Source: a bacterium (GTDB lineage Bacteria > Cyanobacteriota > Vampirovibrionia > Gastranaerophilales > JBAXKC01). Taken from it: a stretch of DNA of 64,000 bases. The notes under the pieces were generated by a model, which was not told the DNA's origin, did no database searches, and saw only the letters and a list, made by a program, of their open reading frames with translations. Position 1 is the first letter of the stretch; the number at the start of each line of letters is the position of its first letter. A program made the translations under genes and the position numbers. The stretch covers positions 43,908-107,907 of the forward strand of contig JBAXKC010000005.1 of NCBI GenBank assembly GCA_037137535.1, read 5' to 3'. Positions 35,839-50,143 of this stretch are shown here, one piece after another.

Positions 35839-37167
35839 ATGAAAAAGAAATTTAATTTATCAATTGGATTAATTTGTGCAATGTTGCTGGCAACCGGCAA
35901 CTTTGCTAAAGCTGAAACAATTACTTTTGACAACGTTTATGATAAGACAAAAACTTATTCACAAGAGCTTAAAATTTCAAACATTGAAATAGGAATAAGC
36001 AAAACTGAATTAAAAAGTGCTAAAGCCGATTATTATCCAACTTTGACGGCTGGATCTTATGCTGAATACACAAGAGATTTAACAAAAAAAACAGGCGGTA
36101 GCGGAGGCTCTTCAATTTCTTCTGTTGGCTCAAGTGTTGTTTCCTCTGCTTCACAATATCAAAATCTTTTAAATATTAACCTATCTTATAATTTATTTGA
36201 TTTTGGGGTAATCCATAAAAAAGTAGTTATGGCAAAAAAGGATGTAGAAGAAAAAAATATTCTATATAAACAAAGCCTTGTTGATTTGAAAATGAAATTG
36301 CTTGACGTATATACGAAGGGTTTAATTTTAAATAAAAGCATAAAAGCGTTAAATCAAATGTTACCAGTTGCCCAATCACTATATGATATGAAACAAGAAC
36401 TTTATAAAGAGGGATTTGCTTCTAAATTACAAGTTTCTGATGAATCTATTAATGTAATGAAGCTTAAAAATGAAATATTGGATAATCAAATTGAATTCAA
36501 AAAAGTATTAACTGATCTTTCATCATATACACATGAAAATTATGATATTGAAAATACTGAATTGTCTGATTTTGATAATCAAGATTATATTGTTCCTATT
36601 GCAAATAAAAGTAATAGGCAAAACTTAAAGTATAAAGTTTATCAACTAGAAATTGAAAAGAAAAAAGCTGAGTTAGAATCAATGAAAAGACAGAAATTAC
36701 CAAATATAAAGCTATATACCAGTTTTGGATTATATGGTGCAGATAGAAGTGACTTTTTAAAATCAGTAAATAATATTGGTACAAGAAATCTTACTGCGGG
36801 CATTTCAGCATCTTTACCGTTATTTGACGGATTTAAAAACTCTGCAAATTGCGACAGATTAAAAATGGAGCTTAAAAAACTTCAATTACAAAAAGAACAG
36901 GCTGAGGAAGATTATAATTCAAGTCTTGATAAATTAACTGAAAGTTTATCTTCTTATAAAGAAGAAAAGAAAAACTATGATATTTTACTAGGTGAAGTAA
37001 GCGAAAAACTTGCTATGCTTAATCAATTATCACAAGAAAAACTGACTGATAAAGCATCTGTTGAGAAGCAAAAGCAAGAGTTAATCAAACAAAAGCTGGA
37101 ATATGAAAAAAATAGAATTATAATAGCCTCTTCAATTAGAAAAATTGAAACTTTATTAGGCACTTAG
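35839..37167 (+). CDS. TolC family outer membrane efflux protein
   Basis: Signal peptide ending AKA; YYPTL, YNLFDFG, LPNI, LPLFDGF; divergent from hlyB/hlyD. Confidence 0.9.
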   Translation: MKKKFNLSIGLICAMLLATGNFAKAETITFDNVYDKTKTYSQELKISNIEIGISKTELKSAKADYYPTLTAGSYAEYTRDLTKKTGGSGGSSISSVGSSVVSSASQYQNLLNINLSYNLFDFGVIHKKVVMAKKDVEEKNILYKQSLVDLKMKLLDVYTKGLILNKSIKALNQMLPVAQSLYDMKQELYKEGFASKLQVSDESINVMKLKNEILDNQIEFKKVLTDLSSYTHENYDIENTELSDFDNQDYIVPIANKSNRQNLKYKVYQLEIEKKKAELESMKRQKLPNIKLYTSFGLYGADRSDFLKSVNNIGTRNLTAGISASLPLFDGFKNSANCDRLKMELKKLQLQKEQAEEDYNSSLDKLTESLSSYKEEKKNYDILLGEVSEKLAMLNQLSQEKLTDKASVEKQKQELIKQKLEYEKNRIIIASSIRKIETLLGT

Positions 37168-37189
37168 CAGATCATATAATATTGGATTT

Positions 37190-37227
37190 TCTGAGGCAAA
37201 ATGCTGTTTGTAGAATTTTGCCTTAGA
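37190..37227. terminator. Hairpin between convergent genes
   Basis: TCTGAGGCAAAAT / ATTTTGCCTTAGA stem with one G-U pair. Confidence 0.55.
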
Positions 37228-37267
37228 GTGTTTTCACTTGGTGATAAATAGTTTTAAGTGTTCTTTA

Positions 37268-38293
37268 TTAAAACTTCTTACAAGCAGGGCTTGTTATATC
37301 AGGAAGTATTATGAAAGAAGATTTTTTATTTTCATTTGTTGTTAATATAGGTTTCCAATAATCTTTTACAAGTAATTTAAAGTTCTTGTCTTTTTCAAAT
37401 TTTAAATTTATTAAGGAAGTTTTTAGTTTGGCACTACTTTGATAATATTTTCTCTCATAAATATATATAATTGCTTCTGAATTGGTAGAGTTAATTACTG
37501 ATGAAATATAAGAAATAACGTGTTCATAATAATCTTGGGCTGTTATTGATAATAAAATATCCACATAAAAATTAAGATTATCCTTTGAATAAATTGTTAT
37601 AAATCCTTCGGCTTCATTTCGTTCTTGATTTATAAATACAAGTTTTTTAGGGTTGTATTTTCTTAAATAATCTAATAAACTGTTTTTTAGGCTTATTTTG
37701 TAATCATTTTTTGATTTTTTTAATGAAACTCTAAATTGTGGATACAATGTAAAAGTATCAAGCTCTAAAAGCTCTTCAGCGTCTTTAGACCTGATTTCTC
37801 TGATTTTATAGCCATCAAGTTTTATTTTTTCAACATCATTACTTTTGAGTTTCCAGATGTCAATTTCACTTAAATACCTAAATCCACAACCATTTTGAAA
37901 AAGTGCAATAGTTTCTGTTTGCATGGACTCAAGTGCTGTTATGAAAGATTGAACACCGGCACCGCCATATTTATTTACAACATAATTAACTAACTGTTTG
38001 CCAATATCAAGATTATTCTGATCAAGAATTAGCCTGTTAATTCTCCATCTCGTGTTGTGTTTATTATCAGGCATAAGGCCTATCAAACCAAGGAGTTCAC
38101 CTTTATTTACCGCTACATAATTTTGTTCAAGAAACCTCATATTTAGAGGCATACTGTCATTGAATAAGGATAGCGGGAAAAAAGTGAACTTCCTGTCTGA
38201 TATAATGCTATAAACATTTGCAGGCTCAATAAATTCAATTTTTTGAGCCAGTTTTTTTATATCTGAAGGTATAAAACGTCTAATTTTTAGCAT
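37268..38293 (-). CDS. Tandem GNAT-fold protein (putative N-acetyltransferase-like)
   Basis: IRRF..SD start, YVA...LLGLI, IGKQLVNYV, IALFQNGCGFR; second repeat begins KIREIRSKD. Confidence 0.65.
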   Translation of the reverse strand: MLKIRRFIPSDIKKLAQKIEFIEPANVYSIISDRKFTFFPLSLFNDSMPLNMRFLEQNYVAVNKGELLGLIGLMPDNKHNTRWRINRLILDQNNLDIGKQLVNYVVNKYGGAGVQSFITALESMQTETIALFQNGCGFRYLSEIDIWKLKSNDVEKIKLDGYKIREIRSKDAEELLELDTFTLYPQFRVSLKKSKNDYKISLKNSLLDYLRKYNPKKLVFINQERNEAEGFITIYSKDNLNFYVDILLSITAQDYYEHVISYISSVINSTNSEAIIYIYERKYYQSSAKLKTSLINLKFEKDKNFKLLVKDYWKPILTTNENKKSSFIILPDITSPACKKF

Positions 38294-38306
38294 TTAACTT
38301 CTTTAA

Positions 38307-38765
38307 TTATATTACTTCTACAATTAATTCAACTTCTACTGAAGAATTCAGCGGTAATGTGTTTACACCAACAGCTGAACGAGCATGTTTGCCTTTATCT
38401 CCAAAGACGTCGCCTAATAAGTCAGAAGCTCCGTTAATAACTTTTGGTTGATCTGTGAATAATGAATCACTATTTACAAATCCAACAACTTTAACAATTC
38501 TTACAACATTATCAAGTCCGACAATATCGTTAATTACACTTAGAGCATTGATAACGCAAAGTTTAGCTCCTTCATAGCCATGTTCGATATTATTTTCAAA
38601 TCCGCCAATTTTACCAGTATAAGCAAGTTTACCTTCTTTCATTGGTAAAACTCCTGAGGTGAAAACGAGATTTCCTGTTCTAACGGCAGGAATATATGTA
38701 GCAACCGGTTGTGGTGCAGGTGGAAGTTCTATTCCAAGTTCTTTTAATCTTTCAAGTATTGACAT
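38307..38765 (-). CDS. RidA/YjgF family protein
   Basis: LGIELP, YIPAVRTGNLVFTSG, VINGASDL, HARSAVGV. Confidence 0.92.
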   Translation of the reverse strand: MSILERLKELGIELPPAPQPVATYIPAVRTGNLVFTSGVLPMKEGKLAYTGKIGGFENNIEHGYEGAKLCVINALSVINDIVGLDNVVRIVKVVGFVNSDSLFTDQPKVINGASDLLGDVFGDKGKHARSAVGVNTLPLNSSVEVELIVEVI

Positions 38766-38815
38766 AATTTTTACTCCTTAACACAAAATTCCAACTTAAA
38801 TTTTAACAGAAACAA

Positions 38816-39718
38816 TTATACGTTTCCAGCGTATACATATTGCAAACCTGCTTTTTTCCCAATTTCGACACCTTCATATATTTTTTCTAATGGAGTAGGC
38901 GGTAAATGAGCCATTTTGTATTGAGGAAAAAACCTTGTAACGTGCCACGGGGTATCTTTTCCAAGTTTAGTTGCAATCCATTCGGCAGTTTTTTCAAAAT
39001 TGTCTACGCTATCATTTATGGTAGGAATAATGTTTGTAATAATTTCAACATGCATTTCTAATTGCTTTGCTCTTTCAATTGTTTCACGAACTTTGTGTCC
39101 ATTTTTGGCATTACAAAATTCTTCATAAAATTTATCATCCATACTTTTTACATCGGCTCTGAATACATCAAGATATGGAGCAATTAGCTCTAGTGCTTCA
39201 ACTGTCATATAGCCGTTGGTCACATATACAGTATAAAAGCCTTGTTCTTTTGCAAGTTTTGCCGAGTCTATTGTATATTCAAGCCATATTGCAGGTTCGT
39301 TATACGTCCAGCTCAAGCCTTGACAGTTATTTTTCGCAATTATACTTACAAGATGTTCTGGTGATAATTGTCCGCTTTTATTTAAAAGTGCTTTTATTTG
39401 TGGATTAGCTAAACTTTCAGCAGACACTTGCGATATTTGCCAATTCTGACAATGTTTACAGTTAAAATTACAGCCAAAACTTCCAACAGAAAGAACTTTT
39501 GTTCCTCGTCTATAATTGTAAACAGGTTTTTTTTCTATAGGGTCTGCGGCAATAGAAGAAATAAGTCCATAAGTATTTAAAACCATTTCCCCGTTAATAT
39601 TTTTTCTTGAAAAGCATCGGGCTATTGTATTTTGCGGAATAACGCATTTGTGATTACAGACATAGCATCGAACAAATCCATTTTTTAATTTTTCCCATAA
39701 TAAGGCTTTATTACTCAT
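38816..39718 (-). CDS. AmmeMemoRadiSam-type radical SAM enzyme
   Basis: CYVCNHKC, DPIEKKP, GCNFNCKHCQNWQISQ, TYNEP, PWHVTRFFP, YVYAGNV. Confidence 0.9.
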   Translation of the reverse strand: MSNKALLWEKLKNGFVRCYVCNHKCVIPQNTIARCFSRKNINGEMVLNTYGLISSIAADPIEKKPVYNYRRGTKVLSVGSFGCNFNCKHCQNWQISQVSAESLANPQIKALLNKSGQLSPEHLVSIIAKNNCQGLSWTYNEPAIWLEYTIDSAKLAKEQGFYTVYVTNGYMTVEALELIAPYLDVFRADVKSMDDKFYEEFCNAKNGHKVRETIERAKQLEMHVEIITNIIPTINDSVDNFEKTAEWIATKLGKDTPWHVTRFFPQYKMAHLPPTPLEKIYEGVEIGKKAGLQYVYAGNV

Positions 39719-39720
39719 AA

Positions 39721-41028
39721 TTATTCATTCCATAGCTTGCTAAATTCGTTTATGGTTTCTTCTAGCCATTCTCTTCCTTTAGCTAAACTCTTCCAATCAA
39801 GTTTTTCATCCGATGAGTGCATATTTTCTATATTCGCCAATCCGACTAAGATAGGTAAGAATTTTTCACCTTTTTCATTCGTTTTTTCATTTGCATAAAT
39901 ATGAGTTTCAGCACCTGCATGGAAAACACTTTCTTTTGAGTTAATCTCAAGGTTATTTGCCGCTATGCTTATCGCCTTGCTTAACGGATTATTTTCTGAT
40001 TTAAGAAAAGGTTTTAGATGCTTTTGTATGACAACTTCAACTTTTATTTTACCGTTATATTTTTTTTCTGTTTCTGAAACGATATTTTTAATAATATTTA
40101 ATAATTCTTCTTCAGGCTCAATTTCACTACTGCGTAAGGAATATGAAATATAGGCTTCTGAAGAAATTATGTTTAATGGTGATTCTTGAGAAATTGTTTT
40201 CATTGCTTCTTTTGCCGCATATTTTGGAAGAATATTTTTTTGAGTTTTTATATTTGCTATGGTATCTTTTATAGCCTCATTAAAATAACCGCCTGCCGAA
40301 CCTCCGATAATTACACCTGCATTTATGGAAGTTACAACACCTTTATCAGTTTGCTTAAATACACCTTGAGGTATTTTAGAATCTATTTCCGTTAAAATTT
40401 TAATAGCACTGATTCTGTCGATATCAGATATATTAATCCCCGAGTGTCCGCCTTTTCCACCTGTTACATTAATATAAACATTGGTAAAGCCAGCCCCTGC
40501 AACGTCATGCTCTCCGAGTTTTTCACCGTCTGCAACAATTACATATTTTGATTTTAATTTTGAAGTATCAAGATTTCTTATTCCGGTCATTCCCATTTCT
40601 TCGTCTTTGGTGAATGTTGCTTCAAGCATTCCATGAGAAGTTTTTGAGTCAAGACTGTTTAGGCCTATTAAGAGATCCATTATTGCAGCTACGCCAGCTT
40701 TATTATCTGCACCAAGCGTTCTTGTCTTATCAGTTTCAATAAAAACACCGTTTTTAGATAATTTTAAGTTAACAGCATCAGAACCTCCAACTACGTCCAT
40801 ATGTGCTGATAATAAAAGTGAAGGGATGTTTTTACAACCCGAAGAAGCAGGGATTTTAGCTATAACATTACCAAAAGTATCATATTTAGCAGCAATTCCA
40901 TGAATGCTTAAAATTTCTATGATTCTTTCTGATACTTGTTTCTCTTTCCCCGATGGAGACGGGATTTCAGCGAGTTCGCAAAAAAGATCAATAACTCTGT
41001 GTTCTTTTTTTATCTGCTCAAGGTTCAT
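39721..41028 (-). CDS. M20/M25/M40 family metallopeptidase (PepT-like)
   Basis: IPSPSGKE, SAHMDVV, LGADNKAG, DEEMG, GKGGHSG, MHSSDE. Confidence 0.88.
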   Translation of the reverse strand: MNLEQIKKEHRVIDLFCELAEIPSPSGKEKQVSERIIEILSIHGIAAKYDTFGNVIAKIPASSGCKNIPSLLLSAHMDVVGGSDAVNLKLSKNGVFIETDKTRTLGADNKAGVAAIMDLLIGLNSLDSKTSHGMLEATFTKDEEMGMTGIRNLDTSKLKSKYVIVADGEKLGEHDVAGAGFTNVYINVTGGKGGHSGINISDIDRISAIKILTEIDSKIPQGVFKQTDKGVVTSINAGVIIGGSAGGYFNEAIKDTIANIKTQKNILPKYAAKEAMKTISQESPLNIISSEAYISYSLRSSEIEPEEELLNIIKNIVSETEKKYNGKIKVEVVIQKHLKPFLKSENNPLSKAISIAANNLEINSKESVFHAGAETHIYANEKTNEKGEKFLPILVGLANIENMHSSDEKLDWKSLAKGREWLEETINEFSKLWNE

Positions 41029-41203
41029 AAATACTTCCTTTCAAACATGCTTTGCGAATACCATTTTGTTTATGTAATAATTAAACTACATCTATATGTG
41101 TTATTGTATGTGAATTTTCTTTTATTTTATAATGTAATAGAAAATAAAGGATTTTATTCTCTGATTATATCAAATCTTTGAGAAACTAAAGCAGGAGAAA
41201 AAA

Positions 41204-41329
41204 ATGAGCGAATATGTTTTTAAAATGAAAAAAGGCGAAATTGAGATTGAATTGAAATCTGATGATGCCAGATTCATTGAAGATCAACTTGACAAGTGGA
41301 GAGAAGCTCTTCTTAATAAAGAAGACTAA
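41204..41329 (+). CDS. 41-aa small protein, stand-alone paralog of the N-terminal domain of 41352..42677 (not in ORF track)
   Basis: AGGAG RBS; MSEYVFKMKKGEIEIELKSDDARFIEDQLDKWREALLNKED*; ungapped similarity to the downstream protein. Confidence 0.85.
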   Translation: MSEYVFKMKKGEIEIELKSDDARFIEDQLDKWREALLNKED

Positions 41330-41351
41330 AAACTGAAGGAAGGGTAAAGCA

Positions 41352-42677
41352 TTGCCTCACTATTATTTATTCAAACTAAAAAAGAATGATGTGGTTTTTG
41401 AATTTTCTTCTCAAGACCCTAAGCTGATGTATTCTCAGTTCAATAAATGGGCTGAAGAATTAATTGGTTCAACTTCAAAAAAAATCGGTTCGCCTGTAAA
41501 AAAGGCCGAGCCTGTTAAAGTTCAACAAGCTGTAAAAATTGAGAAAAAACAAGAACCTATTATTATAGAAACTGTTAAAGTTGTTACAAGAGAAGAATAT
41601 GAGGCAATGCAAAAGCAGCAGGCTGCTCCGCTTGAACCTGCTGAAATACCTCAACCGGTATTAAAGGATTATCCTGAAGAATTTGAAGAAGAAGCCACAA
41701 TTGTAGAAGAACCTGTTCAGCAAGAAGTAGTTCAAGTCGAGGAAATTCAAGAGCCTATTATACAGGAAGTTAAAAAAGTAATTTCTGAACAATTACCGCC
41801 TCCTGTCAAATTAAGGTCTTTAAGTCTTGATGATATTGATATCAGCACAAGACAAGAACCTATTGTTCAACAAACAGAAGAAATTAAAGATGATTTTATT
41901 ACTTTTGAAACAATAGAAAAAAAACCTGAAATTATAATTGAAGAACCTTCTGTTAAAGAAACAGAAGAGGTTGTGACTTTCCCTAATGCAGTTGAATCAA
42001 CTTCAAAGTTTAAACTTACTGAAGATAATGAGCCAAAAGCATATGAATTTAAGACTTTTAATCAGGATGAAGTGTTTGAAGAAGAGCCTGCCGTAACAGA
42101 TAAAGCTGTTGAAGAAGCTGTAATAAATGAAAAGTTCAAACCTTCAAATGTAACTGCAAGTGATGCTTCAAAAGATCAATTCTTTAAAATATTACAAAAA
42201 AAGTTTAGTTCAATAGTTGACGAACCTGAAGTTGAAGAAGTTAAGCCTAAGAATATTATTAAAGAAGAACTTCCGCCTCTTTCAAGTCCGGAAGTCGAAT
42301 ATAAGAAACCGGAAATAAGTTCTTATACTCCGCTTGAAGAAGTGAGAACCGCTCCTCAGCCTTCAATGCAAAATAAAGCATTGGATTTGAAAAATTTAGA
42401 TAATTTGATTCAGTTGAAAAAACCTGATAATATGTTTGATTATTTACTTATAGCCGCATATTATTTAAAAGAAGGTGAGTTTTTAGATCGTTATTCTCTA
42501 AAGCAGATGAATTCTAAAATATTTCCATATACCAGAAAGCCTATTGATCACTCTATAATTCAAAAAGCTGTTGCCAGAAATTACATTGAGGTAGTACCTG
42601 ACTATACAGGAATGGCTGAAGTTACTGAATATGTTATTACTGATGAAGGCGAGAATTATTTAATAAATGAACTCTAA
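41352..42677 (+). CDS. Orphan protein: small N-terminal domain, long E/P-rich linker, C-terminal winged-helix-like domain
   Basis: AAGGAAGGG upstream of TTG start; C-terminus DYLLIAAYYL...YSLKQMN...KAVARNYIEV...YVITDEGENYL. Confidence 0.8.
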   Translation: MPHYYLFKLKKNDVVFEFSSQDPKLMYSQFNKWAEELIGSTSKKIGSPVKKAEPVKVQQAVKIEKKQEPIIIETVKVVTREEYEAMQKQQAAPLEPAEIPQPVLKDYPEEFEEEATIVEEPVQQEVVQVEEIQEPIIQEVKKVISEQLPPPVKLRSLSLDDIDISTRQEPIVQQTEEIKDDFITFETIEKKPEIIIEEPSVKETEEVVTFPNAVESTSKFKLTEDNEPKAYEFKTFNQDEVFEEEPAVTDKAVEEAVINEKFKPSNVTASDASKDQFFKILQKKFSSIVDEPEVEEVKPKNIIKEELPPLSSPEVEYKKPEISSYTPLEEVRTAPQPSMQNKALDLKNLDNLIQLKKPDNMFDYLLIAAYYLKEGEFLDRYSLKQMNSKIFPYTRKPIDHSIIQKAVARNYIEVVPDYTGMAEVTEYVITDEGENYLINEL

Positions 42678-43740
42678 TACTAAAAAAACTAGAGTTGCTG
42701 TTGCTATGAGTGGCGGTGTAGATAGTAGCGTTGCAGCTTTATTATTAAAAAATCAAGGTTATGACGTAATTGGGATAACAGGGGTTATGCATTGTGGTAA
42801 TAATGCTAATGATGCTGTTATAAATGCAAAAAAAGTTTGTGAAATACTAGGTATTTCACATTTTGTTATTGATATGAAAGAACTTTTTCAAGAAAAGGTT
42901 GTTGATTATTTTGTAAATAGCTATAAAGAAGGATTAACTCCAAATCCTTGTCCTGTTTGTAATAAATTTATAAAATGGGGTAAACTCAGAAAAACTGCTC
43001 ATGAGTTGTATTTTGCTGATTTTATAGCAACAGGGCACTACGCCAATATTTCAAATGAAAAGGGTACTTATAAGCTAATTCAAGCTAAAGATAATAAAAA
43101 AGATCAGCTATATATGTTACATACACTAACGCAGGAAGATATTTCAAAAACAATGTTTCCTTTAGCAAATCTTGTTAAATCGCAAGTTAGAGAAATTGCA
43201 AGGGAAAATAACTTACCTGTTGCAGATAACAAAGAAAGTCAGGATGTTTGCTTTATTCAACCTCCTTTAACTACTCCAAAGTTTTTATCTGACAATATTG
43301 GTGAAAAAGAAGGCATGTTTGTAAGTATTCATACTAATGAAGTTTTAGGTAAGCATTCAGGCTATTATAAATATACGATTGGACAACGTAAAGGTATTGG
43401 CATTGCTCATAAAGAACCATTATATGTTGCAGGTTTAAATCCGAATGAAAATATTGTTTATCTTTGTTATAAAGATGATCTTTTTTCTACAACAACATTT
43501 GTTGAGAATATGAATTGGGTATTACCCGAATATTCAAAAAATGATTTTGAGGCCTTTTGCAAAATAAGATATAATACGTCGGCAAAAAAAGCTAAAATAA
43601 TACATCTTGATAATAATAAAGTGAAAATTATATTTGATGAGCCTGAATCAGCTGTAACAATAGGACAAATGGCTGTTATCTATTCTGCTGACAATAGTTT
43701 TCTTATTGGTGGCGGAACAATATACGGAGTAAATGAATAA
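42667..43740 (+). CDS. mnmA: tRNA 2-thiouridine(34) synthase
   Basis: AMSGGVDSS, TPNPCPVCN, ATGHY, KDQLY, ESQDVCF, YTIGQRKG. Confidence 0.97.
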   Translation: MNSNTKKTRVAVAMSGGVDSSVAALLLKNQGYDVIGITGVMHCGNNANDAVINAKKVCEILGISHFVIDMKELFQEKVVDYFVNSYKEGLTPNPCPVCNKFIKWGKLRKTAHELYFADFIATGHYANISNEKGTYKLIQAKDNKKDQLYMLHTLTQEDISKTMFPLANLVKSQVREIARENNLPVADNKESQDVCFIQPPLTTPKFLSDNIGEKEGMFVSIHTNEVLGKHSGYYKYTIGQRKGIGIAHKEPLYVAGLNPNENIVYLCYKDDLFSTTTFVENMNWVLPEYSKNDFEAFCKIRYNTSAKKAKIIHLDNNKVKIIFDEPESAVTIGQMAVIYSADNSFLIGGGTIYGVNE

Positions 43741-43756
43741 TTTAAAGGATTAGGGT

Positions 43757-45496
43757 ATGAATAATATTCAAAAGACACTAGCTGTTTCTTTGCTATCTCT
43801 TTCTCTATCAACTTGTGCATTTTCAAAAAATGCAGTTTATCATCATAAAAATATTCATTCTGTAAAAAAGAATAAAATAGCAGTCAAAAAGCTCACTTAT
43901 GTAAAAAATAAAAAAAATGTTGTAACTCCTAAGCATGAAGTTTTTATTAAGAATGATGATTCAATTAAAACGGCAATAACAGTTAATGACGGTATAACCT
44001 TTGATGATTTGGTTGCGTTATCAAAAAATCCACATCCTGACGGTGTTTTAGGTTATAAACTTCAAAAAGTATTAACTACTCCAATAGTTGATAATACTAT
44101 TAATCCTAATCCTTCATCTGATGAAAAATATAGTACCTCAATTGGTGATTATATCAGGGTAGCCAGTTGGAATATTGAAAGAGGTTTGAATTTAGATAAT
44201 ATAAAATTATTATTTTCTAATGATGATGAGTTGTTGAAAAAAGTTAATCCTAAAGCTAATAAAATTGATGTAGAGAAAGAGGCTAATCAACTTAAGCAGT
44301 CTGATATTATTGTAATGAATGAAGTTGATGACGGTATGCCGAGGACAGGATACAGAAATGTTGCTAAAGAATTAGCAGAAACCTTACATTATAATTATGC
44401 TTATGCACCTGAATTTTTAGAAGTGGACCCCGCTCATCTTGGTGAGGAAGATTGCCAGTGGTCAGAAGAAAAATATCTATTTCCAGATAAAAAATATGAA
44501 GTAGATAAATCTAAATACAAAGGTCTTCATGGAAATGCAATTTTAAGTAAATATCCCCTTGAAAATGTTAGAATTGTAAGACTTCCAGCGGCTTATGATT
44601 GGTTTCAAGGTGAAAGAGATAAGGTAACTGAACTGGAAACAGCAAGAAGAGAAGCTGCTAAGGTTATTTTTAAAGAGGAAATGCTAAGAGAAATCAGGCA
44701 AGGTGGCAGAATGGCTATAATTGCCGATGTGGTAGTTCCGAAAACAAATCAAAAAATTACTGTAGTTGCGGCACATATTGAAAATAGAACTACTCCTGCT
44801 AGAAGACTTGTTCAGCTAAAAGCTATACTTGATGATATAAAAGATGTTCATAACCCTGTAATATTCGCAGGTGACTTTAATACAACTATATCTGATGGCT
44901 CTCCGACAAGTGTAAAAAAAGAAGTCTTAAAAAGAATAACCGATCCTGAGTTTATTGCCAGAAATGCAATAATGACAATGCTTCCTTTATCATATGTTGT
45001 TAATATTTCATCTTTAACAGGTAATTTCGTTAGAAAATACACCGACCCTACAGTAAAAAATATACCTGTAATCGCTCCTAACAAAGAAAGATCTTTCTTT
45101 AATACTTTAAGAAAATTTACTTTTAATGACGGTTATCAGTTTGATTTCAGAGGGGAGAAAAATAGAACCCGTAAAGGTGAAAATGGTCTTATTGCTCAAT
45201 CTAATGAACGTCAATATAAAGGTTTTGTACCTACTTATGTATTTGAGCGTCCGCTTGTTCTAGGGCGTTATAAATTAGATTGGATTTTTGTAAAATCATT
45301 CTCTGAAAAATCGACTGATGATGATCAAAGTTTTAAACTTGCTCCACATTTCGGCTCAACATTAAGGGCATTAAATTATTCATTTACTCCGATATTATCT
45401 GATCATGCGCCAATAACTGCAGATTTACCTTTAAATGAACCGCCCAAGCATATAAAAAGAGAAAAATCGATAAAGACGACTAAGGAAAATAAATAA
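43757..45496 (+). CDS. Exported endonuclease/exonuclease/phosphatase (EEP) family protein
   Basis: Signal peptide; VASWNI, MNEVD, HGNAILSKYP, AGDFN, KLDWIF, SDHAPI. Confidence 0.88.
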   Translation: MNNIQKTLAVSLLSLSLSTCAFSKNAVYHHKNIHSVKKNKIAVKKLTYVKNKKNVVTPKHEVFIKNDDSIKTAITVNDGITFDDLVALSKNPHPDGVLGYKLQKVLTTPIVDNTINPNPSSDEKYSTSIGDYIRVASWNIERGLNLDNIKLLFSNDDELLKKVNPKANKIDVEKEANQLKQSDIIVMNEVDDGMPRTGYRNVAKELAETLHYNYAYAPEFLEVDPAHLGEEDCQWSEEKYLFPDKKYEVDKSKYKGLHGNAILSKYPLENVRIVRLPAAYDWFQGERDKVTELETARREAAKVIFKEEMLREIRQGGRMAIIADVVVPKTNQKITVVAAHIENRTTPARRLVQLKAILDDIKDVHNPVIFAGDFNTTISDGSPTSVKKEVLKRITDPEFIARNAIMTMLPLSYVVNISSLTGNFVRKYTDPTVKNIPVIAPNKERSFFNTLRKFTFNDGYQFDFRGEKNRTRKGENGLIAQSNERQYKGFVPTYVFERPLVLGRYKLDWIFVKSFSEKSTDDDQSFKLAPHFGSTLRALNYSFTPILSDHAPITADLPLNEPPKHIKREKSIKTTKENK

Positions 45497-48372
45497 TGAC
45501 CTCTAAAACCCTAATTCTTATAGATGGACACGCTTTAGCCTATAGATCATATTTTGCACTCGAGAGAACCGGTATGAAAACTCGTGACGGCAAACATACA
45601 TGGGCTGTTTTCGGATTTTTTAAAGCAATCTTTGATTTGCTGGCAAGAGTTCAACCTGATGCAATTGCAGTAACTTTTGATTGTGGAAGAGAAACATTCA
45701 GACTGGAAGCTTATTCTGAATATAAAGCGAATAGGCAGTCTATGCCAGATTCTATGAGAGAGCAGCTTCAATATATTCATGAGGGGGTAGAGGCTTTAGA
45801 TATTCCTATTTATAAATTACCTGGGTTTGAAGCGGATGATTTAATCGGGACAATAGTTACAAGAGCAAAATCATTAGGTCATAAATCTTTGATATTAACT
45901 GGTGATCAGGATTCATTCCAGTTGATTGATAAAGAAGGTCAAATTAAAGTTTTAATCCCATCAAAAGGCGAACTTGTAGAATATGACAGAGACAAAGTTC
46001 ATGAAAAAATGGAAATTTATCCTGAAGATGTTGTCGATTATAAAGCATTAAGAGGTGATACCTCAGATAATATTCCAGGTGTTAAAGGTATAGGCGAGAA
46101 AACAGCTGTTAAGCTCTTAAAAGAATTTGGTACGTTAGACGGTGTTTATGAGCATATTAATGAAATTACGTCTAAGAGCATTAAATCTAAACTTGAAACT
46201 GATAAAGAAATAGCCTATAAAAGTCAATTTCTTGCGACTATTAAACTTGATGTGCCTATGGAATTCGACTTTGAGCATACTCATCTTACAATGCCGAATA
46301 TTGATAAACTTTCCGAGTTTTTGACAACTTTTCAGTTAAATGCTTTTTTAAAACAATTACCGACTATTTTAAAGCCTTTTAACAACGGAGTAGTTCCGGA
46401 TATTAAATTAACAGCAGAACCTGAAATTAAAACTGATTCTCAGCTTAGTTTGTTTAGTCAAATGCCCCAAGAAAATAATCATGAAAAAGCTATAATTGAG
46501 CAAGAAATAAGTGATTGTAAACATACTCTCGAAATAATTGACAGTGAGCAAAAACTTGATGATTTAATTAAAATTCTCAACCTTGCAACTGTTATTTCGC
46601 TTGATACGGAAACAACTGACCTTGATACTTTAAGAGCTGATCTTGTTGGTATTTCTTTTGGAATAAATCCTCAAGTGAATTTTAAAGATGGTAATTTATT
46701 TGCAGATAAAACAAAAAATGATTGTGTTAATACTTTTTATATTCCTGTTGGACATATTGAAGGTAAGCAGCTAGACAGAATCTTTGTTTTAGATAAATTA
46801 AAACTCGTTTTTGAAAATGACAATATAAAAAAAGTTTTACAAAATGCGAAATATGAAATAAATATTTTAAAAAATTATAATATTACCTTAAAAGGCATAA
46901 TTTTTGACACAATGCTTGCAAGTTATGTGAAAGATCCCGCAGGAAAACATGGCTTAAAGCAGCAGGCTCTTTTGCATCTTAATTATTCAATGACAAAGAT
47001 TGAAGAGTTAATTGGCAAAGGCAAAAATGCATTAACAATGGATAAAGTTTCTATTAATGATTCTGCAAAATATGCCTGTATGGATGCGGCTTCAACAATT
47101 AATCTTGCTGACTATTATTTAACAAAACTCGATAATAAAGATAAAGAAATTTTAAATGATATAGAAATGCCTTTAATTTCTGTACTTGCGGATATGGAAA
47201 GAACTGGAGTTTGTGTAGATAAAGAATATCTGGCAGAATTATCAAAAGAACTTGGTTCAAAATTAGAAAAAATAGAAACAGCTATTTTTGAAATTGCGGG
47301 GGAACGATTTAATGTTAATTCCCCGAAACAGGTTGCCGATATTTTATTTGAAAAACTTCAATTACCTGTTAAAGCAGGGAGTAAGACAAAGACAGGTATT
47401 AGTACCGATGCAAAAACTCTTGAATATTTAAAAGATATTAATCCTATTGCGGGTTTATTACTCGAACATAGGCATTTATCAAAACTTAAATCAACTTATG
47501 TTGATTCATTGCCGCTTCTTATAAATCCTAAAACAAAACGTATTCATACGAGTTATAATCAAACAGCAACAACAACAGGACGTCTTTCAAGCAGTAATCC
47601 TAACTTGCAGAATATTCCAATCAGGTCTGAAATTGGTAATAGAATAAGGGCGGCTTTTGTAACAGAAGACCATGAAAATTATGTTATTCTTGCTGCGGAT
47701 TATTCACAAATTGAATTAAGGCTTTTAGCTCATGTTTCTCAAGATGAAAACTTAGTATCGGCATTTAGAAATAATATCGATATTCATACAGATACAGCTT
47801 CAAAAGTGTTTAACGTATCAACTGAAGAAGTTACAAAAGATATGCGTAGACAGGCAAAAGCTGTAAACTTCGGTATTATATACGGGCAAACAAGTTATGG
47901 GCTTTCCGAATCCCTTGGTATTCCTGCATCAGAAGCTAAGCAAATGATTGAAAAGTATTTTGAAACATATCCTAAAATTAAAGAATATATTGAAAATACT
48001 ATTAAAGAAGCTCAACAGAATGGATGTGTTGCCACATTCTATGGAAGAAAGCGTTATTTTGACGAAGATATTCACAGTAGAAATAAAAATATCAGAGAAT
48101 TTGCTCAAAGAGCGGCTGTAAATGCACCTTTGCAGGGAACTGCCGCGGATCTGATAAAACTTGCAATGATAAAACTTCATGATGAATTGCAAAAAAGAAA
48201 ATTAAAATCTAAACTTATTTTGCAGGTGCATGATGAATTGGTACTTGAAACAGCTAAAGATGAGCTTGATGAAGTTATAAATCTTGTAAAAGATTGTATG
48301 GAGCTAAATCAACCGTTTTCAGTTCCTCTTGAAATTGATATAACAAGTGCAAAAAACTGGATGGAAGTATAA
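45496..48372 (+). CDS. polA: DNA polymerase I
   Basis: 5'-3' exonuclease (LIDG, EADD, GDTSDNIPGV), DTET exonuclease motif, TGRLSS, ADYSQIELR, QVHDE. Confidence 0.98.
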   Translation: MTSKTLILIDGHALAYRSYFALERTGMKTRDGKHTWAVFGFFKAIFDLLARVQPDAIAVTFDCGRETFRLEAYSEYKANRQSMPDSMREQLQYIHEGVEALDIPIYKLPGFEADDLIGTIVTRAKSLGHKSLILTGDQDSFQLIDKEGQIKVLIPSKGELVEYDRDKVHEKMEIYPEDVVDYKALRGDTSDNIPGVKGIGEKTAVKLLKEFGTLDGVYEHINEITSKSIKSKLETDKEIAYKSQFLATIKLDVPMEFDFEHTHLTMPNIDKLSEFLTTFQLNAFLKQLPTILKPFNNGVVPDIKLTAEPEIKTDSQLSLFSQMPQENNHEKAIIEQEISDCKHTLEIIDSEQKLDDLIKILNLATVISLDTETTDLDTLRADLVGISFGINPQVNFKDGNLFADKTKNDCVNTFYIPVGHIEGKQLDRIFVLDKLKLVFENDNIKKVLQNAKYEINILKNYNITLKGIIFDTMLASYVKDPAGKHGLKQQALLHLNYSMTKIEELIGKGKNALTMDKVSINDSAKYACMDAASTINLADYYLTKLDNKDKEILNDIEMPLISVLADMERTGVCVDKEYLAELSKELGSKLEKIETAIFEIAGERFNVNSPKQVADILFEKLQLPVKAGSKTKTGISTDAKTLEYLKDINPIAGLLLEHRHLSKLKSTYVDSLPLLINPKTKRIHTSYNQTATTTGRLSSSNPNLQNIPIRSEIGNRIRAAFVTEDHENYVILAADYSQIELRLLAHVSQDENLVSAFRNNIDIHTDTASKVFNVSTEEVTKDMRRQAKAVNFGIIYGQTSYGLSESLGIPASEAKQMIEKYFETYPKIKEYIENTIKEAQQNGCVATFYGRKRYFDEDIHSRNKNIREFAQRAAVNAPLQGTAADLIKLAMIKLHDELQKRKLKSKLILQVHDELVLETAKDELDEVINLVKDCMELNQPFSVPLEIDITSAKNWMEV

Positions 48373-48432
48373 AAAACTTTGAATTTAGCGTTTAACTGTT
48401 AAAATTAATATATAGTTAAACGGAGAAAGATA

Positions 48433-49110
48433 ATGCACATTCCAGACGGTTTTTTAAGTCCAATTACTTGTATAACTTGTTATGCAGCAATAATTCCGTT
48501 TTGGATTATATTCTCAAAAAAAGTACAAAAGGGTATGAATACTCAATTAATGTCGTATGCAGCTCTGGGTGCTTCATTTTCCTTTTTAATTATGATGATA
48601 AATATACCGATTCCCGGTGGAACGTGCGGACATGCAACGGGTACAGCTTTATTGAGCCTGCTATTTGGTCCTGAATATGCTTTTATACTTGTTTCTTTAG
48701 CTTTAGCTATACAAGCGTTGATTTTTGGTGATGGCGGAATTACTACCTACGGTGCAAATGTGATTTCAATGGCATTAATCCCATCATATATAGCTCATTA
48801 TCTGAATTATATATTAGGCAAATTAAGAAATAATACAACACTTTGTCCGATAAATTCGGCTATAAGTGCTTATTTTGCTATTGTTTCTGGGGCTTTGTTT
48901 ACTTCGGTTATACTTGGCGTTCAGCCTTACTTTTTTCATTCTGCAACAGGACTTCCAATGTTTTTCCCGTATGGATTAAATGTTACTATTCCTGCTATGT
49001 TAATTCCCCATATTCTTGTATTTGGTTCTATTGAGGGAGTAATAACCTCTTTAGTTATAAAATATCTGGCAACTTCAAATAATTTATTAAATTTGCAGGT
49101 TGATGAATAA
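48433..49110 (+). CDS. Ni/Co ECF transporter substrate-binding component (NikM/CbiM)
   Basis: N-terminal MHIPDGFL; PGGTCGH; FGDGGIT. Confidence 0.92.
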   Translation: MHIPDGFLSPITCITCYAAIIPFWIIFSKKVQKGMNTQLMSYAALGASFSFLIMMINIPIPGGTCGHATGTALLSLLFGPEYAFILVSLALAIQALIFGDGGITTYGANVISMALIPSYIAHYLNYILGKLRNNTTLCPINSAISAYFAIVSGALFTSVILGVQPYFFHSATGLPMFFPYGLNVTIPAMLIPHILVFGSIEGVITSLVIKYLATSNNLLNLQVDE

Positions 49111-49439
49111 TGCAATATAAAAAGTTAAGATTAATAGTATTTTTATTAATTATAATTTCACCTCTCGGTGTTATTTTACCTGAACTTATAAAAAATAATG
49201 GCACTTGGGGCGAATGGGGCAACGATGAACTTTATAGAATGATTGGTTATTTACCTCATGGGATAAATAAACTTAGTTCTTCATGGTCATCAGTTTTTCC
49301 TGACTATTCTTTAACGTCAACTCAACATGGTTTAGTGGGCAAATCAATTGAGTATTATACCTCTGCTGTAATTGGAGCAGTTTGCTGTTTCTCTTTGAGC
49401 TTATTTTTATTAAAACGTATGAATGGAAACGTAAAATAA
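49110..49439 (+). CDS. Ni/Co ECF auxiliary component (NikN/PDGLE-domain-like)
   Basis: Two TM helices flanking WGEW...FPDY; translational coupling. Confidence 0.8.
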   Translation: MQYKKLRLIVFLLIIISPLGVILPELIKNNGTWGEWGNDELYRMIGYLPHGINKLSSSWSSVFPDYSLTSTQHGLVGKSIEYYTSAVIGAVCCFSLSLFLLKRMNGNVK

Positions 49440-49441
49440 TT

Positions 49442-50143
49442 ATGCAATTTATTGATAAAACATTAGAAGACGTAATGCAAATTTTAAAAAGAGATTATTG
49501 TTTATCCACTCAGCATAATAATCGTTTTTATAATAAAATTTCACCTGAATTAAAATTATTATTATTTAGTATTATGCTTTTAATCGTAAACTTCATTGGA
49601 AATATTCAATTTGATTTTCTTATTTCATTTTTTTTGATAATGCAGATTTATTTTATTGATTCAAAATTTAGAAGAGTTTCATTTCTGTTAATAATTTTTA
49701 ATCTTATATTTTTAAGTTTGATTTTTCTTCCCGTATTATTAACCTTCAACTTTGACAAAAACTTAGCAATAGGCTTTAGTTTAAAGCATTTTCATCTTTT
49801 TATAACTAACGTATTAAGAACAGAAACTTCTCTTATCCTTTTAATTTTATTATGGCTTACTACAAGTTGGGATAAAATTATTAAGTCATTAAAGATATTT
49901 AAAGTTCCCGACTTTATAATAGAAATTTTACTTTTAAATTATAGATATATTTTCTATTTCTTGAATTTATTAAATAATATAAACTATTCTCTAAAAAGCA
50001 GGTTGATTAAACGTGTTAATATAAGATTAATGTATAAATTTATTTCGTTTAAAATATTGTTAATACTATATAAGTCGGTTTCAATGGCTAAACAGGTAAA
50101 CATGGTGATGATTTCAAGGAGTTATAATGTCCGAAAGTTCTAA
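49442..50143 (+). CDS. ECF transmembrane component (NikQ/CbiQ)
   Basis: Multi-TM; LKIFKVP, YRYIF, KSR and ISRSY coupling-helix motifs. Confidence 0.8.
   Translation: MQFIDKTLEDVMQILKRDYCLSTQHNNRFYNKISPELKLLLFSIMLLIVNFIGNIQFDFLISFFLIMQIYFIDSKFRRVSFLLIIFNLIFLSLIFLPVLLTFNFDKNLAIGFSLKHFHLFITNVLRTETSLILLILLWLTTSWDKIIKSLKIFKVPDFIIEILLLNYRYIFYFLNLLNNINYSLKSRLIKRVNIRLMYKFISFKILLILYKSVSMAKQVNMVMISRSYNVRKF

Follow-up and report, generated by a model that had tools for sequence, protein, structure and literature searches.

A 41-residue protein related to the N-terminal module of its acidic winged-helix neighbour: a conserved gene pair of non-photosynthetic cyanobacterial relatives

In Bacillus subtilis, the gene sinR is immediately preceded by sinI. 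By mimicking the oligomerisation domain of SinR, the SinI protein keeps SinR from forming tetramers (bioRxiv 10.1101/2025.11.23.689978). H-NST is a truncated H-NS, without the DNA-binding domain, that prevents H-NS oligomerisation; since it is absent from Escherichia coli K-12 and enterohaemorrhagic E. coli (EHEC), its gene is an accessory one rather than a conserved member of an operon (PMC3897749). In eukaryotes (plants, animals), the class of microProteins is defined as small single-domain proteins related to a domain of a larger multi-domain protein and acting via heterodimers (PMC7534434, PMC6003976). Here we describe a gene pair of this general kind in a 64,000-nucleotide stretch (hereafter the window) of Gastranaerophilales assembly GCA_037137535.1 (contig JBAXKC010000005.1, positions 43,908 to 107,907, forward strand), in which a small gene for a protein of 41 residues directly precedes a large gene for a protein of 441 residues, and the small protein is a genuine paralogue of the N-terminal module of the large one.

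The small open reading frame (ORF) and its AGGAG motif were found where the original prediction, made from the sequence of the window, had placed them, and the features of the pair are as follows, in window coordinates (pLDDT, predicted local distance difference test).

41193..41197, + strand: Shine-Dalgarno-like AGGAG, 6 nt 5' of the small-gene ATG, read from the sequence
41204..41329, + strand: small gene, ATG-started ORF of 41 residues, free copy of the predicted beta-beta-alpha module
41335..41344, + strand: purine-rich ribosome-binding stretch GAAGGAAGGG in the 22-nt spacer between the small gene and the TTG of the large gene, read from the sequence
41352..42677, + strand: large ORF, 441 residues, TTG start
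41352..41471, + strand: large-protein residues 1-40, predicted N-terminal beta-beta-alpha module, paralogue of the small protein (BLASTP, alignment, AlphaFold2)
41472..42368, + strand: large-protein residues 41-339, acidic, predicted disordered linker of variable length (composition, pLDDT)
42180..42206, + strand: FFKILQKKF, conserved amphipathic helix motif, residues 277-285, within the linker (a block in alignment A1, see below)
42369..42674, + strand: large-protein residues 340-441, predicted acidic C-terminal winged helix (H-H-H-H-strand-strand-H; AlphaFold2, Foldseek)

The small ORF had been called hidden. It does lie below the length cut-off used in the original prediction, but several public records already predict it as a 'hypothetical protein', the only name found in its 67 database clusters (33-65 residues, 68-100% identity). 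Among 14 small ORFs (91 pairs), the median proportion of differing synonymous sites (pS) was 0.81 against 0.13 for nonsynonymous sites (pN), the median ratio of nonsynonymous to synonymous rates (dN/dS) was 0.074 (32 of the 91 pairs having a finite dS), and the differences at codon positions 1, 2 and 3 were 0.21, 0.075 and 0.50. Purine-rich stretches of the GGAG, GAGG or GGGA type were seen by eye within 20 nt 5' of the small ORF in related loci. Judging from the excess of pS over pN, the codon-position pattern, the database clusters and the profile matches given below, the small ORF codes for a protein and is under strong purifying selection. One might suspect a reading frame that arose by chance in AT-rich DNA, because the ORF is short and many chance ORFs of 30-80 codons occur in the region, but synonymous sites are saturated while the protein is kept, 67 database clusters exist, the position is conserved in 13 loci, and a Shine-Dalgarno motif and an ATG are in place; this explanation has practically no chance of being right and is refuted as far as the sequence evidence reaches.

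BLASTP aligned residues 4-37 of the small protein with residues 5-38 of the large protein without gaps, with 13 identities and 21 positives in 34 positions (E 4e-8, as a single comparison), in agreement with the match first read from the letters. A search for relatives of the large protein found 14 at E<=0.001 among 7999 scored candidates, none of them named and none with Pfam domains, and alignment A1, which consists of these 14 and the window's large protein (15 rows), shows three conserved blocks (the first ~38 residues, a short amphipathic motif and the last ~95 residues) with variable sequence between them. A hidden Markov model (HMM) of the module was built from large proteins only (13 of the 15 rows, cut to their first 40 columns; two rows without the start were excluded) and was run over all ORFs of at least 25 residues in the window and 20 related loci. 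It matched the window's small ORF at E 7.6e-13, and an ORF of 40-46 residues that immediately precedes the large gene on its strand was matched in 13 of the 20 loci as well as in the window (E 1.4e-14 to 7.6e-13); the best unrelated ORF reached E 0.36. These matches show the small protein to be a genuine paralogue of the N-terminal module at the sequence level. Joining of the two ORFs by programmed frameshifting or read-through was also considered and rejected, because the spacers hold stop codons and differ in length between loci (3-214 nt).

As in SinI/SinR, then, the small protein is homologous to one terminal domain of the adjacent larger protein, which has a domain of the helix-turn-helix (HTH) type, and the shared part, an oligomerisation domain in SinR, may have an assembly role here by analogy. 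The likeness is one of arrangement only. SinI is helical and copies a C-terminal domain, whereas the module here is a predicted hairpin-helix at the N-terminus, and SinR has an Xre-type HTH and no long linker, whereas in the present large proteins a linker of about 60 to >500 residues would lead to an acidic winged helix; neither an Xre-type HTH nor a SinI-type helical hook was found by Pfam or NCBIfam matching, and the module is modelled as beta-beta-alpha. The second likeness is to H-NST, which corresponds to the free N-terminal oligomerisation region of a protein laid out as 'oligomerisation domain - linker - binding domain', and which joins and disturbs the oligomer (PMC3897749). The original prediction had drawn the comparison with H-NS, Lsr2 and Rok, and this stands as an analogy of layout but not as a sequence relationship, since no H-NS-type match was obtained (0 Pfam families at E<=1 for both proteins) and the predicted N-terminal fold is not a coiled coil. 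H-NS combines coiled-coil oligomerisation with a basic DNA-binding C-terminal domain, whereas here a hairpin-helix module is combined with a predicted acidic winged helix; from H-NST the present pair differs in being adjacent, in its conservation across two orders, in its acidity throughout and in its unrelated sequence. The microProtein definition fits in its first part, as the small protein is a single-domain relative of a domain of a larger protein, and action via heterodimers would be the second; in contrast to the eukaryotic class, the small protein here appears older and more constrained than its supposed target domain.

The 20 related loci (L001-L020) came from a genome-contig scan with only two peptide patterns, and their number is therefore no census. 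In a six-frame scan that did not depend on start codons, the module occurred exactly twice in the window and in 13 of the 20 loci, the copies lying next to each other on one strand, and exactly once in the other seven. Between the two genes lie 3-51 nt in the window and in 11 of the 13 loci. The pair occurs in the Gastranaerophilales-type loci L001-L009 and in the Vampirovibrio-type loci L017-L020, so the conservation that had been suggested as a check is confirmed, and the duplication must be older than the split of the two orders. The metagenome-assembled genomes (MAGs) in question are labelled Candidatus Gastranaerophilales, Candidatus Limenecus, Vampirovibrio, Vampirovibrionales or 'Cyanobacteriota bacterium', and the NCBI lineage for these groups is Candidatus Melainabacteria. 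We consider a vertically inherited two-gene module of non-photosynthetic cyanobacterial relatives (Gastranaerophilales-type and Vampirovibrio-type) to be the best explanation of the pair. Five of the MAGs, labelled instead as uncultured Gammaproteobacteria, Clostridium sp. or uncultured Muribaculaceae (L002, L003, L006, L013, L014), carry a Gastranaerophilales-type locus, with mnmA downstream except in L014; these labels are probably taxonomic mislabels of bins.

In a wider survey, a profile of the C-terminal domain matched 386 representative proteins (50% clusters) at E<=1e-3, 269 of them at E<=1e-10, and among the matches listed the match ended within ~13 residues of the C-terminus in 150 of 150. 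The module was present in 134 of 156 family proteins with the C-terminal domain and stood at the N-terminus in 130; of the 22 without it, 16 are shorter than 200 residues and fragment-like, and two longer ones have visibly module-like starts. Conversely, the module profile found 147 longer proteins, and among the matches listed (120) all were of family-typical length and 119 had no Pfam domain. The tree of 33 modules (42 columns) left 15 of its 29 inner branches open but united the single-gene modules, that is, those of large genes without a small gene, in a clade of their own (support 97/98); in this sample, an origin of the single-gene form by fusion and one by loss of the small gene were not separable. 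One protein, P0277 (127 residues, on an 874-bp contig), has a single-gene-type module and linker start followed by DUF6870 (Pfam E 1.2e-21) in place of the winged helix; it is an uncommon variant of the architecture or else a chimera created during assembly.

Judging from profile searches, both proteins fall outside the described families. The large protein had no Pfam family at E<=1 and no NCBIfam match, the small protein likewise had none in Pfam (E<=1), NCBIfam or PADLOC, and Pfam found no family in nine of the longest family members. PADLOC returned nothing for the small protein, the window's large protein or the large protein of L010, and only a chance-level PglZ row (E 0.23) for that of L017. 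When the 20 C-terminal domains were compared with Pfam at E<=5, nine families appeared, each in one or two members and none recurrently; PadR (PF03551) and MarR appeared in none of the 20, and HTH_34 in one (E 0.11). When the C-terminal-domain profile was run against PDB sequences, two rows came up, both at chance level (E 1 and 1.2). A literature search, with subscription journals outside its coverage, found no paper on this protein family. Two of the three outcomes that the original prediction had named as speaking against it, lack of conservation in relatives and assignment to a characterised family, were thus examined and neither occurred, and its 'possibly undescribed' holds for Pfam, NCBIfam, PHROGs and PADLOC. 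What is known is the kind of arrangement; what is new is the module, its combination with an acidic winged helix on a tether, the depth of its conservation and the reverse asymmetry in rate described below. In PHROGs, the small protein has one weak match to a family of unknown function, phrog_27870 (E 0.0025, residues 14-35 on profile positions 4-25 of 69), besides which only families of unknown function at E 0.19 or worse were seen.

The layout of the large protein as domain, acidic disordered linker and winged helix, proposed from the sequence, was reproduced by AlphaFold2. In the full-length model (130-row alignment), the N-terminal module is predicted as two strands (residues 5-11 and 14-20) and a helix (23-39) with a pLDDT of 77-91, which agrees with the beta-beta-alpha module originally proposed, and the pLDDT of the linker is mostly <55. 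The linker (residues 41 to 339/340) consists of 18% E, 11% K, 10% V and 10% P and has a net charge of -29, so that of the earlier description as a Glu/Pro-rich low-complexity region the Glu-rich, acidic and disordered character stands, but the proline content is only moderate; no DNA tandem repeats were found in this part of the gene. The whole protein has a net charge of -33 and an isoelectric point (pI) of 4.6. The amphipathic motif DQFFKILQKKF noted earlier was recovered, its FFKILQKKF core lying within a predicted helix at residues 274-289 (pLDDT 72-79), and a loose pattern of it matched within the linker in 93 of 130 family members, in most cases at a distance of 127-135 residues from the C-terminus, with variants recognisable in Vampirovibrio-type and single-gene forms. 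Family proteins with the N-terminal module range from ~197 to 661 residues, and their end domains stay conserved while the linker varies. A second short linker helix at residues 80-89 (window 41589-41618, pLDDT ~78) is common only to the closest relatives, P0002 and P0003, and the single-gene forms L010-L016 have an extra conserved linker element at about residues 53-95, which starts R-S-G-F-I and is absent from paired forms.

Several of the genes do not start with ATG. The large gene starts with TTG in the window (41352), L001 (5995), L002 (6166) and L003 (6165) and with GTG in L009 (6139), and the small gene with GTG in three Vampirovibrio-type loci (L017 4953; L019 4705; L020 4938). Such recurring non-ATG starts of both genes may serve to control the protein ratio.

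AlphaFold2 (20-row alignment) models residues 340-441 with a mean pLDDT of 90.6 and a predicted template modelling score (pTM) of 0.82 as four helices, a two-strand wing and a final helix, and the same winged helix appears in the full-length model with a pLDDT >90; Foldseek agrees with the winged-helix-like C-terminus of the original prediction. The best resemblances in the PDB were the human ORC1 winged helix (E 2.7e-3), PadR, MarR-family proteins, the archaeal-virus protein F93 and pNOB8 AspA, with template modelling (TM) scores of 0.46-0.62 and no match at E<=0.001. PadR chains lie at E 4.8e-3 to 7e-3 (TM 0.52-0.54), and the ORC1 winged helix, MarR and F93 score equally. In the ESM Atlas, a PadR cluster was found for the winged helix at TM 0.69, and otherwise only unnamed clusters, leads at best (scores 0.85-0.89); the small protein has no Atlas model. 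Foldseek of the full-length model gave the same winged-helix matches and none for the N-terminal module. We read the resemblance to PadR, MarR and ORC-type domains, which in the models covers a three-helix core, a two-strand wing and extra N- and C-terminal helices in the last 100 residues, as generic. There is no sequence-profile match (for PF03551, 0 of 20 C-terminal domains at E<=5 and no family at E<=1 for the whole protein), Foldseek never gives an E better than 2.4e-3, with TM scores of 0.46-0.69 overall, and the domain here is acidic without conserved basic residues in helix 3 or wing.

In the window, the winged-helix domain has a net charge of -4 and a pI of 4.9, and it is acidic in all 20 relatives (net -4 to -10, pI 4.1-5.5), so that the basic C-terminal domain of an H-NS-like DNA-binding protein was not found. 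Only three alignment columns are at least 60% K/R, all of them before or within helix 2 and none in helix 3 or the wing, and the wing has conserved D, E, T and Y but no conserved basic residue. The nucleoid system envisaged in the original prediction is weakened by this acidity. One could still argue for a transcription factor of the PadR/MarR sort or a nucleoid protein resembling H-NS, with the large protein holding DNA via the winged helix and bridging or oligomerising via the N-terminal module, and with the small protein as a SinI-like antagonist: the fold is a winged helix-turn-helix, its nearest solved structures (PadR, the MarR family, F93, AspA and the ORC1 winged helix) are DNA binders, conservation is highest in helix 2, at the beginning of helix 3 and in the wing, on the side that usually faces DNA, and the order of small antagonist and regulator would match that of sinI and sinR. 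The conserved acidity of the domain, the scarcity of K/R columns, the net charge of the whole protein, the lack of a recurrent DNA-binding Pfam family and of Foldseek matches at the thresholds given above, and a variable acidic linker, unusual in a site-specific regulator, all speak against it, and we regard this explanation as unlikely. The charge pattern fits a protein-binding winged helix better than a nucleoid protein, though the domain might bind DNA.

The two copies of the module differ strikingly in rate. The mean identity among the small proteins of the 13 loci and the window is 0.78, whereas the paired N-terminal modules of the same loci have a mean identity of 0.40 within the Gastranaerophilales-type and 0.30 between the orders. 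Each group of N-terminal modules shares more identity with the small proteins (0.38-0.43) than with the other groups of N-terminal modules (0.23-0.30), and in the module tree the branches of the small proteins are short and those of the N-terminal modules long. From this asymmetry of identity and branch length, the free copy is the slow-evolving, probably ancestral-like form with constraints of its own, and, unlike in SinI/SinR, the small protein here far exceeds the copied domain in conservation; the asymmetry fits a hub role of the small protein.

Ten positions are common to the small protein and the N-terminal module (Y4, K9, K10, E16, S19, D21, F24, Q28, K31 and W32), whereas K7, M8, E14, K18, E26 and R33 are near-invariant in the small protein only, which is indicative only because the two sets were sampled differently. 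Several of the ten are charged and likely exposed, and so extreme a conservation over 40 residues is the usual mark of a protein that a conserved partner holds, as would be expected if the small protein were a decoy, that is, if it and the N-terminal module each bound the same third partner (protein or nucleic acid) without binding one another and the small one competed or substituted for the large one. However, no candidate for such a partner is seen in the neighbourhood, where the upstream genes differ and the large gene is followed by mnmA in 14 of 20 loci and by prs in four, and Y4, F24, W32, the S19/D21 helix cap and the K-K-G-D turn are equally explained by maintenance of the fold. We think a decoy improbable.

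Judging from the paralogy, the conserved adjacency and the precedents, we tentatively favour a microProtein pair of the SinI/SinR or H-NST/H-NS kind, in which the module would be an assembly domain joined by both proteins. The large protein would then be a three-part tether made of a ~38-residue hairpin-helix module, an acidic disordered spacer with a conserved amphipathic helix, and an acidic winged-helix head. The module would form dimers or oligomers, and the free small protein would join the same assembly as the N-terminal copy of the large protein, either forming the hub or setting the number of winged-helix heads per hub. From this assembly the head and helix motif of the large protein would hang by a flexible, acidic tether that varies in length, the client of the head being more likely a protein or something else other than duplex DNA. 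In the seven loci without the small gene, the N-terminal module of the shorter large protein may do the job alone. A complex prediction for residues 1-45 of the large protein (with A1 as alignment) and the small protein (with alignment A3) gave scores of 0.26 and 0.18 against a mark of 0.32; made without controls, it speaks neither for nor against binding.

Several observations weigh against this picture. AlphaFold2 models the N-terminal module confidently as a single chain, and the model does not force oligomerisation. K7, E14, K18, E26 and R33 are conserved at >=0.97 in 59 small proteins and at <0.5 in 130 N-terminal modules (again indicative, the samples having been drawn differently), and such charged residues, invariant in the small protein only, hint at a separate partner, different from the N-terminal module. 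Winged helices of low pI can bind DNA, and the argument from charge against DNA binding is accordingly soft. The spacer is 214 nt in L017 (5082-5295) and 204 nt in L019 (4834-5037), so tight co-translation is not universal. Finally, seven of the 20 loci (L010-L016) are single-gene, with large proteins of 197-239 residues and no small ORF within ~5 kb on either side, and the small gene is thus dispensable in some lineages or located elsewhere. These last loci, the wide spacers of L017 and L019 and the invariant residues peculiar to the small protein would also suit two proteins with independent functions, whose adjacency would be a leftover of an old tandem partial duplication and of which the large one would not need the small one. 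We find this very unlikely, because adjacency and order are kept in all 13 loci with a small gene and in the window, in both orders, while nearly everything else around them has changed, and a function without linkage is not expected to preserve a linkage that dates from before the split of the two orders.

To return to the assembly proposed here, a bolder form of it, which we hold to be quite doubtful, is that the 40-residue protein is the unit of a novel homo-oligomeric scaffold (ring, sheet or filament) present throughout this class, into which the large protein would plug via its diverged N-terminal copy to display, through a long acidic entropic spring, a winged-helix head that catches a protein client. 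Such a scaffold would account for near-every residue of the small protein, exposed charged ones included, being frozen across the two sampled orders.

Few bacterial small proteins are copies of the assembly domain of a larger partner (SinI/SinR, H-NST/H-NS), and most of those regulate accessory behaviour. The present pair is unusual in that its gene order is kept across two orders of a poorly studied class, one of them with gut and algal-predator members, in that it is built from domains absent from the family libraries, and in that the free copy evolves far more slowly than the copied domain, which is the reverse of what a simple 'decoy derived from target' would predict. Were the small protein an assembly hub, it would be a new structural element of these cells, and on the scaffold reading the pair would be a new cytoplasmic organising system of a non-photosynthetic cyanobacterial lineage and not a transcription-factor/antagonist pair; were it an antagonist, the microProtein principle would extend to an ancient bacterial core pair. 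With 41 residues and a modular tether, the pair is a concrete two-protein test system, and it reminds us that 40-codon genes below length cut-offs can rank among the best conserved genes of a lineage.

The pair is followed in the window by three genes on the same strand.

42667..43740, + strand: mnmA (tRNA 2-thiouridylase; Pfam tRNA_Me_trans, E 5e-65), its start overlapping the last 11 nt of the large gene (42667-42677)
43757-45496, + strand: EEP-family gene, in the same-strand run after mnmA
45496-48372, + strand: polA, in the same-strand run after the EEP gene

The original prediction had placed the pair at the head of this run. The run exists, and mnmA also lies downstream of the large gene in 14 of the 20 loci, its start usually overlapping, but the EEP gene and polA are not a family feature, no linkage to either being seen in the loci whose downstream genes were scanned. 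The overlaps amount to ~10-22 nt in most loci with mnmA downstream, and the start of mnmA inside the end of the large gene suggests translational coupling. We take mnmA to be a neighbour that is probably co-transcribed with the large gene. Other downstream genes are shikimate kinase in L004, LptF/G on the opposite strand in L014, and phosphoribosyl pyrophosphate (PRPP) synthetase (prs) in four Vampirovibrio-type loci.

Upstream of the pair, the window has M20-type peptidase, radical-SAM and YjgF/RidA-like genes on the opposite strand. In a scan of 19 loci, with L007 left out, the upstream genes varied: the M20 peptidase was found in the window and five loci, and elsewhere sigma-70, Era, GcvP, a DinB-type polymerase or a deaminase. 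Only the adjacency of the small and large genes is constant across loci.

At the nucleic-acid level, no terminator-like site was found between the small and large genes, Rfam gave no match at E<=0.1 in window positions 36000-50000, and the predicted RNA fold of 41150-41400 was no more stable than shuffled sequences (z 0.64). The promoter scan gave 20 sites against 13.1 +/- 3.5 expected, which is uninformative in AT-rich DNA, with one candidate (41052-41081) 5' of the small gene. The GC content equals that of the surroundings and so gives no sign of foreign origin. On the minus strand, an ORF of 341 residues (37268-38293) without Pfam match at E<=1e-5 adjoins the YjgF/RidA-like gene, and on the plus strand polA is followed at 48433-50143 by CbiM and CbiQ genes of a cobalt/nickel ECF transporter, with an ORF of 109 residues between them.

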